This document shows positions 32,945-40,164 of a stretch of DNA of 64,000 nt, one piece after another. A program made the position numbers and the translations under genes. The DNA is from Flavobacteriaceae bacterium (GTDB taxonomy: Bacteria > Bacteroidota > Bacteroidia > Flavobacteriales > Flavobacteriaceae): the NCBI GenBank assembly GCA_026710085.1, contig JAPORT010000050.1, forward strand, positions 3,227-67,226, in the 5' to 3' direction. Positions within the stretch are counted from its first letter, which is position 1, and every line of letters begins with the position of its first letter. Below the pieces are notes generated by a model. It saw only the letters and a list, made by a program, of their open reading frames with translations, searched no databases and was not told where the DNA came from.

Positions 32945-33367
32945 TCAGGGGTTTGAAAGGCTTTTGCCCCCCCCCATTTTTTCAGATTCTCTTAATTTTC
33001 GATGGTTGCTATCGTAATCATAACACGCCCATAGCTGGCCATCCGTGATCATCCCTTTCCAAACAATCGATTGACCTTGATTCCATAATTCATTATTAAA
33101 ATTGGGCACAACGCCATCAAGGTATTTTAATAATTGAGTTTTATTCTCTTCAATGTTCATCTGACCTCGTTTTTTGGTTTCGATGACCACTTTATTTGAA
33201 AATGAAATCATATCACATAACCCTTCTGATGTTGAAAAGTTTTGAGTCCAATCGTCTTCACTATTGAGTTGCCGAAAAATCATCTTTAGAAGGGTTTCAA
33301 GATTTCTTTCAGCACTATCAAGTTGAATTAATTCTTGATAGAGGTTTTCTTGTTCTTGATTCATCAA
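32945..33367 (-). CDS. PD-(D/E)xK endonuclease module of the Type IIG enzyme (truncated 10 codons after the G9 tract)
   Basis: CDMISFSNKVVIETKKRGQ...QLLKYL has the same D-x(10-11)-ExK-x-RG...Q..Y layout as MmeI-family nuclease domains. It reads into the methylase frame if the tract is G8 or G11. Confidence 0.65.
   Translation of the reverse strand: MMNQEQENLYQELIQLDSAERNLETLLKMIFRQLNSEDDWTQNFSTSEGLCDMISFSNKVVIETKKRGQMNIEENKTQLLKYLDGVVPNFNNELWNQGQSIVWKGMITDGQLWACYDYDSNHRKLRESEKMGGGKSLSNP
32967..32975. repeat. homopolymer C9 (G9 on the coding strand) at the nuclease/methylase junction
   Basis: Counted directly (cttttgCCCC CCCCCatttt). Tract length sets the reading frame between ORF 32945-33367 and the methylase frame. 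Confidence 0.95.
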
Positions 33368-33521
33368 ATATTTTTTTTAAAAAGCCATATTCTTGTTTAG
33401 TCACCAACATTCTTCTAGAAAATTTTTGTGTCAAAAGTATCATATCCTATTTGTTTTTTTGACTTGCAAAACGTTTCCTTTCGGGGGATCATGTTGAAAT
33501 TCATTTGATTCGTTTATGGAT

Positions 33522-34406
33522 TTATTCATTGTAAGGATCATACCCTTTGATGCTTTTATATCTCTTTTGGATTGTATCTAAGTGAGCTCCTTTTTTGGTG
33601 TCTTTCATACGCATTTCTCTTATAACGTATTTGAAATAAGAAATAGCATGATTAAACATATAATTGATAAAAGGTTCCATACTCTTATCATGCCATGAAC
33701 ATCTCAATGAGTATTTATAGAGTTCTGCATTATTTTCTAATATAGTTGTCAGTGGTTGTTTATGATAACCTTGTACATAGTTCATTAATAATCGACTGAT
33801 TCGGCTATTGCCGTCACCAAAAGGATGAATAGTTATTATGTCATAGTGCATTTTAAAACTTAATTCATAGATATCTAATACGTCTTTTACTTACCGACAT
33901 TTAGCATTATTTTCGACAAGTATTTTAGATAATTGAGATATCACTTCAGAATAGTGAATGAATTCATGTTTCGCATTTTTATTGAACTCCCATTCAACTT
34001 GGTAATCTCTTATTTTTCCCGAAGATCTATTGACGACCCGTCCACTTTCTATCATTCCAAGATTATTTATTTTATTCAATAATATTTTATTGACTTCTTC
34101 AATCATTGGTATTTCTATCGAGGTTTTAAATCGACAAAAATTGATCACCTTGTACAATGCATTGATATGGTTTTTTACCATTTGATCGTGCTCTACTGGT
34201 TTTCCAGAAGGTTTTCCATACTTCTGTAGTAAAGCCACTTCTTTTCTAGTCAGAGTACTTCCTTCAATTTTGGTGCTCTGCTCGGTAAGCAAAGCAACTA
34301 AGTCTTCTTGAATAAAAGAAGAATTAGAAATCAATTTTTTATAATTATTTACTTGGTTTAAGAATTCTTTTTTATCAAACGATTCTAAATTGTCCAAATT
34401 CATCAA
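33522..34406 (-). pseudogene. Fic-domain protein (class II, internal inhibitory SxxxEG helix) interrupted by one in-frame TAA
   Basis: ORFs 33891-34406 and 33522-33851 are in the same frame, separated only by TAA (33891-33893) plus 13 sense codons: ...ENNAKCR*VKDVLDIYELSFKMHYDIITIHPFGDGNSRISRLLMNYV. The Fic motif is HPFGDGNSR (G to S at the penultimate position). The inhibitory motif STKIEG is in the N-terminal part. Confidence 0.75.
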
Positions 34407-34729
34407 GCCATCAGTTTGTGTGAATTTTTGAATTCGGATTTATAATAATCAATGAAGAATTTGTCAACAATCTCTCTTAATGCACGAATGTGTCTCACAT
34501 CCAATCTTTCTCCTTTTTCATTTGATTCTTCTAAATCGTTTATAAAACCAATAAAATTCAACCAATTCAAACAATCTCGTTGCTGATGATGATCAAAATC
34601 AAATTCAACATTATCGTATGGATTGCCATTTTTATTAATAAAACTCCTGACGTAACTAACTAATTCTTTTTGCTCTTGTAGGGTGGCTTTTGTTATCGAA
34701 GAGTTTTCTGATTTCACTGCTTTATTCAA
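34403..34729 (-). CDS. hypothetical protein, 108 aa, overlaps the Fic start by 4 nt
   Basis: ORF only (TTG start). The overlap (ATGA) suggests co-translation with Fic. No family recognised and no SxxxE(G/N) antitoxin motif. Confidence 0.4.
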   Translation of the reverse strand: MNKAVKSENSSITKATLQEQKELVSYVRSFINKNGNPYDNVEFDFDHHQQRDCLNWLNFIGFINDLEESNEKGERLDVRHIRALREIVDKFFIDYYKSEFKNSHKLMA

Positions 34730-34892
34730 TTTATTTAGGCTTGATATTGCCTATGACAGAACCTTGAGCTACTTTGCAAAAAATAATCTTAAGAAATCTC
34801 TGAATAACGCAAAATTAAAAAAATGAGGTACTACGAGGAAGTTATCTTTTCTTTTCAGCCAATGAATCCACCATTCCATGTTGCTTTCCTCC

Positions 34893-34900
34893 AATTTTAG
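34893..34900. repeat. flanking direct repeat AATTTTAG (putative target-site duplication)
   Basis: Identical 8-mer abuts the other end at 36223-36230. Confidence 0.8.
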
Positions 34901-38720: not shown

Positions 38721-38774
38721 ACACACGAAATTAACAGATTTCGCTAATCCGTGCCGTATCGCTAACAAAAAATG

Positions 38775-38805
38775 CCTTGAAAAGGAAATTATATCCTTTC
38801 GTAAC
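38775..38805. repeat. inverted-repeat arm B (CCTTGAAAAGGAAATTATATCCTTTCGTAAC)
   Basis: Its reverse complement aligns with 40264-40296: GTTACGAAA(A)GGATATA..TTCC..TTTT.AAGG, roughly 28 of 33 positions by eye. Confidence 0.65.
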
Positions 38806-38870
38806 TAGTAGTTATATTAATTAAACTTATGATATGGCGATTCGAATGGGATCGGGTAGCGTGTCCAATT

Positions 38871-39344
38871 TTATCCAAAACCTCCTCGATTCGCAAAGTT
38901 CGCAAATTCACCCTGATTAAAAACCTGTTCTAGTCGATTTTTGCCTGATTGATCCAGCAACCATTGTCGCGCTCCATCTGAATACCCACCACCATCAAGA
39001 AGAATCATCGTATTGTATTGACTTTGATTGATGCACAAAACTTCATACGGATATTTTTCTTCAACACTTCCGCCAGAAGCTTGCCACTTGCATTGAATAG
39101 CCAAACAGCTTGGATATTGTTTTGGGTGATAAAGAATTAAATCGACCAATCGTCTTTTGTCGTAAATACTCTTACCTGTCTCAAACTGCCTCGAATAAAT
39201 GGGTTGATTCTTTTCACGCATTGGTAAAAATCGATGCGGTTCGGTATATCGGTAACCTCTTTCCTCCAATATTTCAGAAGCAAACCGTTCTAGTCTTTTT
39301 CCAGACGTATTAGCACGTGTACCACCGCTTTTTCGTCGTGACAT
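38871..39344 (-). CDS. small PD-(D/E)xK-type nuclease, putative restriction endonuclease partner of the Dam-like methylase
   Basis: GKRLERFASEILEERGY ... VDLILYHP...LAIQCKW fits a D...(E/Q)xK core. Its ATG overlaps the methylase stop by 1 nt (TAATG), implying translational coupling. Confidence 0.5.
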   Translation of the reverse strand: MSRRKSGGTRANTSGKRLERFASEILEERGYRYTEPHRFLPMREKNQPIYSRQFETGKSIYDKRRLVDLILYHPKQYPSCLAIQCKWQASGGSVEEKYPYEVLCINQSQYNTMILLDGGGYSDGARQWLLDQSGKNRLEQVFNQGEFANFANRGGFG

Positions 39345-40164
39345 TATTTCTTACTAGTGATCAAAAGCTCCGTCACTTGTTGACGTTTGGAGGCTTTACA
39401 ATTGATATTTCTAGAGGCTTGAATTTGATTGATCTGATAGCCTTTCCACGTTTTCCTTATAAAATCGGTATCACTGTTTGATACAATAATGCGAGCTCCT
39501 GCCTCGGCCCAAGAATCGCACATTTCCCTTAATTTGACTTGGCTATCTCTATTAAAACCTGAATTTGTATACTGATCGTATGTTTCATCGTAAGGTGGAT
39601 CGCAATACACTAAGTCATGATGACCTGGCCTGATATGCTCAAATGATTGAACTTTCAAATCAACAGATTCTAACACTTCTGAAACTTTCATTAAATTCAT
39701 TGTATCATAAATCTTAGGATTCTTGTATTTTCCTATTGGAACATTAAACCGACCAACTTGATTGACTCTATAAAGCCCATTATAACACGTTTTGTTTAAA
39801 TAGATAAATTGAGCTGCCAACTTCATAGCATCTTGCCCATGATTATATTGGGAATTATATTCTTCTCTTATGGAATAGTAATGTTCTTTTGAATGCTTTT
39901 TTTGATAGTCAGATAGTTGTTCAATGACCTTTCTTGGTGATTTCTGCAACATTCGATAGGTCAGCATCAAATCAGCATTGACATCGCTTAAAAAAGCCTT
40001 ATGATGTATTCTGCTATTCAGTCCAAAAAAAACGGCACCACCGCCTAGAAAAGGCTCATAATAATCATTAAATGGGGGGGGGCGATAAACCTTTCTATAT
40101 GAGAAATTAACGCTCTTTTTCCGCCAGCCCATTTAAGAAATGGGTATGCTTGTGATGGGTTCAA
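39344..40164 (-). CDS. Dam-family (alpha-class, DPPY) N6-adenine DNA methyltransferase, frame interrupted at a C9 tract
   Basis: From TTG 40164: MNPSQAYPFLKWAGGKRALISHIERFIAPP. The frame is then lost. The downstream ORF has FNDYYEPFLGGGAVFF (motif I) and VYCDPPY (motif IV). Motif X (KWAGGK) and motif I are in different frames with 9 C and in one frame with 10 or 7. Confidence 0.8.
40074..40082. repeat. homopolymer G9 (C9 on the coding strand) inside the 5' end of the Dam-like methylase
   Basis: Counted directly (aatGGGGGGG GGcgat). Confidence 0.95.

Follow-up and report, generated by a model that had tools for sequence, protein, structure and literature searches.

The stretch analysed here (the window) comprises 64,000 nucleotides (nt) of contig JAPORT010000050.1 of a Flavobacteriaceae bacterium (assembly GCA_026710085.1), and it carries two DNA methylase genes whose reading frames are each broken at a run of nine G or C residues. 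One is a predicted type IIG restriction-methylase gene and the other a Dam-family methylase gene that is followed by a small nuclease gene. The main features are the following:

30439 to 33367, minus strand: type IIG restriction-methylase gene, Eco57I/MmeI-like, 975 amino acids (aa) at a tract length of eight (G8); assigned by Pfam, PADLOC and motifs
32967 to 32975, minus strand: poly-G9 tract (coding strand), "site A", in the nuclease-methylase linker; G9 out of frame, G8 and G11 in frame
32945 to 33367, minus strand: upstream open reading frame (ORF) of 140 aa with the PD-ExK nuclease domain, from the ORF translation
30439 to 32658, minus strand: 739-aa ORF as called in databases (P0001, 100% identical), with the methylase and the target-recognition part
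39344 to 40164, minus strand: Dam-family (D12 class) N6-adenine methylase gene, 273 aa at C10, TTG start at 40164; assigned by PF02086 and TIGR00571
40074 to 40082, minus strand: poly-C9 tract (coding strand) at the 5' end of the Dam gene, between motifs X and I; C9 out of frame, C10 and C7 in frame
38871 to 39344, minus strand: PD-(D/E)XK nuclease gene (Pfam PDDEXK_11), 157 aa, whose ATG overlaps the Dam stop codon (TAATG)

In the G9 state, the 140-aa ORF is the only full product from the natural start of the type IIG gene. The stop-free methylase frame extends back to the tract, but there is no start codon before 32658. When one G is removed, or two are added, a single Eco57I-family protein of 975 aa results, which matches Pfam Eco57I (36 bits versus a cut-off of 25), N6_Mtase and UPF0020, and is also recognized by the PADLOC profile REase_MTase_IIG (E=1e-37). 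The PD-(D/E)XK catalytic motif, formed by D52 and E63-x-K65, is invariant in 13 homologues, and the protein carries DPxCGSG (motif I) and NPPW (motif IV), as a gamma-class N6A methylase. An intact homologue of 974 aa is known (P0002 cluster). The nearest solved structure is that of MmeI (5hr4), with which the methylase core alone aligns (E=1e-7). By these motifs and matches, the gene at 30439-33367 is predicted to encode a type IIG nuclease-methylase. The G-run itself is part of a three-codon insertion (ATG GGG GGG G), which three orthologues lack.

The C-terminal third of the type IIG protein gave no match in profile searches. Over this third (30439-31400) the nucleotide identity with the orthologue on contig L022 is 69%, versus 84% over the first 2 kb; such strong divergence is as expected of a recognition domain, and the comparison suggests that the target-recognition domain was replaced between the two genes.

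In the Dam gene the conserved N-terminus A.PF.KW.GGKR, read from the TTG at 40164, lies in a different frame from the remainder of the gene, and at C9 motif X is out of frame with the other Dam motifs. Translation from the natural start in the C9 state gives a 39-aa peptide with its stop at 40045; the ORF given in databases has 262 aa and begins with an ATG at 40132 that is out of frame. The 273-aa protein is restored by adding one C or removing two. Once corrected, it covers positions 1-253 of the 253 of PF02086 (E=8.5e-55) and reaches 266 bits with TIGR00571 (cut-off 115), and it is only after the +1 correction that a full-length match to the family profile is obtained. Every invariant residue of motifs X (KWAGGK), I (EPFxGGG) and IV (DPPY) is kept. 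The C-run codes for 'IAPPP' at a place where 14 Dam homologues have 'VL-PES', which is a one-codon insertion, and the tract is missing from the Dam homologues of other genomes. By comparison with their homologues, both tracts are lineage-specific codon insertions in variable linkers, not conserved Gly or Pro codons. The specificity of Dam, judged from family membership only, would be GATC.

The 157-aa PDDEXK_11 protein is the probable cognate restriction enzyme of Dam, and the pair is read as a putative Type II methylase-nuclease module. The same gene order, Dam and then PDDEXK_11, is also found in the unrelated genomes L101 and L102, and at least 15 Dam homologues appear to share contigs with nuclease homologues, as read from the longest contigs of equal size. 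The two closest Dam homologues checked are orphans, with no adjoining nuclease. Some relatives of the 157-aa nuclease have weak Pfam matches to DpnII/XamI; for the nuclease itself PDDEXK_11 of Pfam was the sole match, with none in solved structures, NCBIfam, PADLOC or PHROGs. With their nuclease parts, both loci resemble defence systems and not orphan regulators.

The G/C runs were counted over the whole window, which has 35.7% G+C. On the plus strand the two tracts are read as C9 at 32967-32975 and G9 at 40074-40082, 7.1 kb apart, and there is no other G/C run of nine. The spectrum jumps from 6 to 8-9, with four runs of 6, none of 7, one of 8 (C8 at 61085-61092, plus strand, the only further run of at least 8) and two of 9. 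According to analytic estimates, 0.02 runs of at least 9 are expected per 64 kb with an order 0 model and 0.05 with a geometric fit to runs of 2-6; models of order 3-4, which are contaminated by the tracts themselves, give at most ~0.13. The probability of finding two or more ranges from ~2e-4 to 7e-3 over the composition models. Methylase-coding sequence makes up 5.9% of the window and both 9-nt runs lie inside it. The A/T runs of nine are as many as expected (3 observed versus 3.2, order 0). Among the 38 A/T runs of at least 8 there are 18 within open frames of at least 300 codons, and thrS reads through an A9. The first-pass annotation had reported the two runs as the sole G/C runs of nine that it saw, both in restriction-modification (R-M) methylase genes of one island 7 kb apart, one needing -1 and the other +1 to come into frame, with long housekeeping ORFs crossing A runs intact; its description of the tracts was accurate in each detail checked.

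Related loci were compared in contigs drawn from the metagenome samples ROBB21-1 and SHAF22-1, several ERZ assemblies and GCA_026709845.1. They include a sister lineage whose contigs L008 and L009 are 98.4-99.9% identical to the window. The tracts of the type IIG orthologues, and a third tract in another methylase gene, are these:

L022, 84% nt identity to the window gene: G9 at the same site A; gene split
L006, orthologue: C15 at site B (five-codon insertion) and G7 at site C
L007, orthologue: G9 at site C and C9 located 26 nt 5' of the start codon
L023, orthologue: C9 at site B (in frame) and G10 at site C (out of frame)
L018, L021 and P0002 cluster, orthologues: tract-free, intact, 974 aa
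L008 8990-8998 and L012 210-217, sister lineage: third tract, at the 3' terminus of an N6_N4 methylase gene and 7 nt ahead of the ATG that opens the following ORF

Tracts of 9-15 nt are present at three different sites (A, B and C) among the type IIG orthologues. L006 and L023 are 98.9% identical over 6.9 kb, yet they differ in both tracts (C15 versus C9 and G7 versus G10), and both are OFF, each one via a different tract. In distant homologues of other phyla, a C9 is found at site A (L088) and a C10 coding for poly-Pro at site B (L048); L040, with a C13, and L048 are one slip away from ORFs of 968 and 1251 aa, respectively. Of all in-gene tracts, 7 break the reading frame and 4 keep it, as random phase would predict. 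At the low-GC loci of the family the run spectrum has a mode at 9 (seven runs of 6, one of 7, none of 8, five of 9, one of 10 and one of 13), and 4 in-gene runs of at least 9 are found versus 0.12 expected. Over all 78 family loci the enrichment of tracts in genes relative to flanks was not significant overall, so that the case for a pattern across phyla is drawn from the low- and mid-GC loci together with the positional recurrence. In high-GC genomes of the family, runs of at least 9 are fewer than predicted by composition.

Four assemblies have the third tract as G9 and one (L012) has it as G8. At G8 the N6_N4 methylase has its stop codon right at the next ATG, while G9 adds 37 aa overlapping the next ORF, and G7 or G10 would produce a fusion with it, of 668 aa.

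The out-of-frame G9 is common to the window gene and L022, and neither of them has a stop apart from the frame break. The ratio of nonsynonymous to synonymous substitution rates (dN/dS) between them is 0.11 upstream of the tract and 0.17 over 509 codons downstream (dS 0.65). Such low values on either side of a shared frame break indicate that the gene has not been dead since the common ancestor of both, and they are taken to exclude a long-term pseudogene status for the type IIG gene. Between L006 and L023 the type IIG dN/dS is 0.69.

Intergenic G/C tracts of 9 nt were seen in related Flavobacteriaceae (L007 5967-5975, L022 8208-8216, L029 3757-3765 and L006 11125-11133). Among them are the one 26 nt ahead of the type IIG start codon, another that precedes a 426-aa ORF by ~110 nt and another that precedes a type IIG homologue by ~240 nt. 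Such tracts may be promoter-located switches. In addition, a Gammaproteobacteria contig (L094 558-3390), from a metagenome-assembled genome (MAG), carries five G/C tracts, 8-11 nt long, in the 3 kb that precede its type IIG homologue.

Considering the tract anatomy and frame logic, the excess of runs, their recurrent gain, the length differences between orthologues and the purifying selection, all of which were observed directly, we regard it as fairly probable that both tracts are slipped-strand contingency loci, both of them caught in the OFF state. We infer switching at the two focal loci, the coupling of nuclease and methylase, and a selective benefit. During replication, a G/C run of 9 nt would gain or lose a base by slipped-strand mispairing, and the downstream part of the gene would move in or out of frame. 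At G8 or G11 the type IIG gene would give one chain with nuclease, methylase and target recognition, in which restriction and modification switch together; at G9, translation would end after the 140-aa nuclease domain. The Dam gene would give the full-length methylase at C10 or C7 and only the 39-aa peptide at C9. The nuclease gene downstream would be silenced together with an OFF Dam gene through the loss of translational coupling, since a cognate nuclease that is active while its methylase is missing should kill the cell, and this silencing would explain why the methylase-OFF state is tolerated. In the population the consensus is OFF at both loci, with probably a minority of ON cells, and the mixture of ON and OFF cells would act as bet-hedging of costly defence systems.

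Several results weigh against switching at the focal tracts. The G9 of the type IIG gene is the same in 3/3 assemblies (the window, ERZ27276879 and ERZ23497148), and the C9 of Dam in 13/13 sequences, which come from two lineages 1.6% apart and at least 6 samples. No ON-length allele of either gene was found in 5.8 billion protein clusters, where every protein in the 90% clusters of the two genes is in the OFF frame, and a scan of Joint Genome Institute (JGI) metagenome contigs by pattern for either tract, with variable gap, gave 0 matches. All of the tract-bearing Flavobacteriaceae type IIG alleles (5/5) are OFF. Some of the orthologue tract lengths come from contigs whose names suggest ~10x long reads, in which homopolymers are possibly imprecise. 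For Dam, the two close lineages differ by 2 synonymous and 2 non-synonymous changes, too few for a selection test, and for the dN/dS of Dam and the nuclease there are only 4-9 differences, with no power. There is also true decay in the island, where the neighbouring SoFic gene has an in-frame stop. Finally, consensus assemblies hide minority alleles, so that neither switching nor its absence is visible in them. The proposal of phase-variable methylases in the first-pass annotation is borne out in part, by the independent gain of tracts at three sites, the length differences in near-identical strains and the purifying selection, and is left without support from the focal tracts, constant and with no ON allele in the protein collection. 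Its suggestion to compare tract lengths across relatives had a similarly divided result, with variation in the orthologues (L006/L023) and in the third tract, and constancy at the two focal ones. It should be considered that mutation may draw tracts towards a length of 9, as in Campylobacter jejuni, in which case genes that are ON at 8 or 10 would be mostly OFF and ON in a minority of cells, which fits an invariant consensus.

The explanation that best competes with contingency loci, although we think it unlikely, is that the alleles are stuck OFF or are young pseudogenes: the tracts would be real and mutation-prone, and the frameshifts would be fixed losses of function in a decaying island, with no useful reversion. 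The 9-nt length that is constant in all assemblies and the failure to find an ON allele are what such alleles would show, and the surroundings give further examples of loss: the adjoining SoFic is broken by a stop codon, L006 has a Dam homologue shortened to 175 aa, the sister lineage has a split fatty-acid hydroxylase gene and has wholly lost the type IIG gene, and the dN/dS of 0.69 for L006 versus L023 points in the same direction. However, decay does not create runs of 9-15 nt that recur at several sites and in several phyla, and both genes are fully open besides the single slip and keep all the invariant residues of their families. The dN/dS of 0.11-0.17 further implies translation through the tract for most of the dS 0.65 divergence.

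A programmed recoding is much more doubtful. Here the out-of-frame 9-nt state would itself be functional and selected, and the enzymes would be made via RNA-polymerase slippage or ribosomal frameshifting, giving a built-in low constitutive dose of toxic enzymes that is conserved across lineages. This would explain the constant C9 and G9 (the first in 13/13 sequences, the second common to the window and its 84%-identical orthologue) and the strong purifying selection downstream of the tract; besides, the Dam sequence C CCC CCC fits the X XXY YYZ pattern for a -1 shift, and 5/5 Flavobacteriaceae type IIG alleles need the same correction of -1 nt. Nevertheless, the lengths differ between near-identical strains (C15 versus C9, G7 versus G10, G9 versus G8), in-frame tracts exist too (C9 in L023, G9 in L039 and C9 in L088), and the 7 out-of-frame to 4 in-frame count is a random-phase split. 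The two genes would moreover need opposite shifts, +1 on GGG GGG in type IIG and -1 in Dam, and efficient slippage is documented mainly for A/T runs, which also counts against recoding.

A sequencing or assembly artefact, in which assemblers miscounted tracts that are truly in frame, was rejected as very improbable: homopolymers are the main error class on several platforms and the window comes from a MAG, but MEGAHIT-style (k141), scaffold-style, Logan and NCBI MAG contigs from different samples agree on identical lengths, and the G8 of pfkA and many A8-A9 runs are read in frame, so that the earlier judgement that sequencing error was less likely holds.

The contingency-locus reading can be compared with what is known of other systems. 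The type IIG protein of the window is built like MmeI, with an N-terminal PD-ExK domain, a gamma-class N6A methylase (NPPW) and a C-terminal recognition part in one chain. We know of no phase variation of MmeI.

The closest known case, likened by description, is cj0031c of C. jejuni; the type IIG gene cj0031 of this organism is phase-variable through a G9 tract (PMC4889913). Like the type IIG gene of the window, it codes for a single-polypeptide nuclease-methylase with an intragenic polyG9 and a one-base toggle, and it has a role in phage restriction. The polyG/C tracts of C. jejuni have a genome-wide modal length of 9, like the tracts here, which has been ascribed to mutational patterns, G8 tending to gain and G11 to lose (PMC3401435). 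In contrast, cj0031c belongs to a gut pathogen of the Campylobacterota, whereas the window is from an uncultured marine member of the Bacteroidota, probably sponge-associated; switching is deduced here and not measured, and the gene family of the window has several alternative tract sites.

In the phasevarions (Type III mod and Type I hsd genes, in Haemophilus, Neisseria and Helicobacter among others; PMC5909438, PMC7383803) there is likewise a repeat inside the methylase ORF that leads to ON/OFF methylation. Their repeats are mostly tetra- or pentanucleotides and their regulon has been demonstrated, while here mononucleotide runs lie in a Type IIG and a Type II (Dam-like) system with nuclease parts present. 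The term phasevarion would apply to the two loci only if methylation by them controlled a regulon. The Type II/IIG methylases of Helicobacter pylori (PMC3936762, PMC4209511) also have homopolymeric G/C tracts, in several R-M genes per genome; the likeness is by description, and they differ in that H. pylori is a pathogen and its methylomes were mapped experimentally. Within the same phylum, the 'epigenetic invertons' of Bacteroidetes (inversion of Type I hsdS; PMC7672463) also bring about stochastic R-M variation, but by site-specific recombination and not by homopolymer slippage.

In the literature searchable, we found no report of homopolymer phase variation of R-M genes in Flavobacteriaceae or in sponge symbionts, and the phase-variable methylation found for Bacteroidetes is DNA inversion. 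The mechanism is already known; the taxon and the likely sponge-microbiome setting appear to be new. Homopolymer phase variation of R-M systems has so far been studied almost solely in cultured, host-adapted pathogens, and the device is now seen in uncultured marine Flavobacteriaceae, with like tracts at the same permissive loops of the type IIG family in MAGs of several phyla. Should switching be confirmed, defence that turns ON and OFF stochastically would be a trait of the community, and many calls of frameshifted or truncated methylases in MAGs would be switches and not pseudogenes or errors.

Both genes lie in a larger variable region, which is defined by comparison with the sister contigs:

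29693 to 41510, no strand: strain-variable defence island, from ldh to the fatty-acid hydroxylase gene

The island contains the type IIG gene, the broken SoFic, TnpB, two paralogous AAA ATPases and the Dam/nuclease pair. Window positions 30011-34602 (type IIG and SoFic) and 34900-36221 (TnpB) are absent from the sister contigs, and in L008 other methylase genes and IS1595 stand in place of the missing segments. The SoFic/Fic gene (33522-34406), which adjoins the type IIG gene, is split into ORFs of 171 and 109 aa by an in-frame TAA near 33891 and not by a frameshift, and it is read as a real pseudogene, or else as a putative case of readthrough.

The Dam/nuclease pair is flanked by AAA_16/ATPase_2 paralogues at 37536-38768 and 40312-41367, with 66-81% nt identity in parts, and the pair may have been inserted into, or duplicated with, an ATPase gene. 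More defence genes are found near the island (21970-25620 and 46481-48247), namely a Ppl homologue (PADLOC, 2e-98), a Schlafen/AlbA_2-HATPase_c_4 protein and a NERD-UvrD helicase. The window scan gave no transfer RNA or Rfam elements.

In the fatty-acid hydroxylase gene, the G6T of the window at 41641-41646 corresponds to a G10 in L009 (8486-8495), with a net change of +3 nt; this G10 comes from a single assembly and the name of the contig suggests long reads. The G-run was rejected as the cause of the split of this gene in the sister lineage, because L008 is split despite having the G6 of the window.

With regard to the other runs in the window, the C8 at 61085-61092 is a G8 on the coding (minus) strand of pfkA, where it is in frame and codes for the conserved QRGGS as AGG GGG GGG AGT, codons that put an essential gene at risk in a genome of 36% GC. 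There are 35 A/T runs of 8, 3 of 9 and zero of at least 10, an abrupt end, while a geometric fit to the shorter runs predicts ~15 of at least 9; long A/T runs look counter-selected in the window.

Among species representatives of GTDB, the type IIG homologues are all from MAGs, which belong to many phyla. Many of the names are sponge-associated (Candidatus Poriferisodalis, Porisulfidus and Hopanoidivorans cymbastelae; bins RHO3, COS4 and SB06xx), and these names point to a sponge-associated habitat of the host. The distribution of the family (L021-L098), almost wholly in MAGs with such names, is consistent with lateral spread within sponge microbiomes; sponge symbionts have been described by Robbins et al. 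(PMC8163846) as enriched in laterally moving restriction-modification systems.

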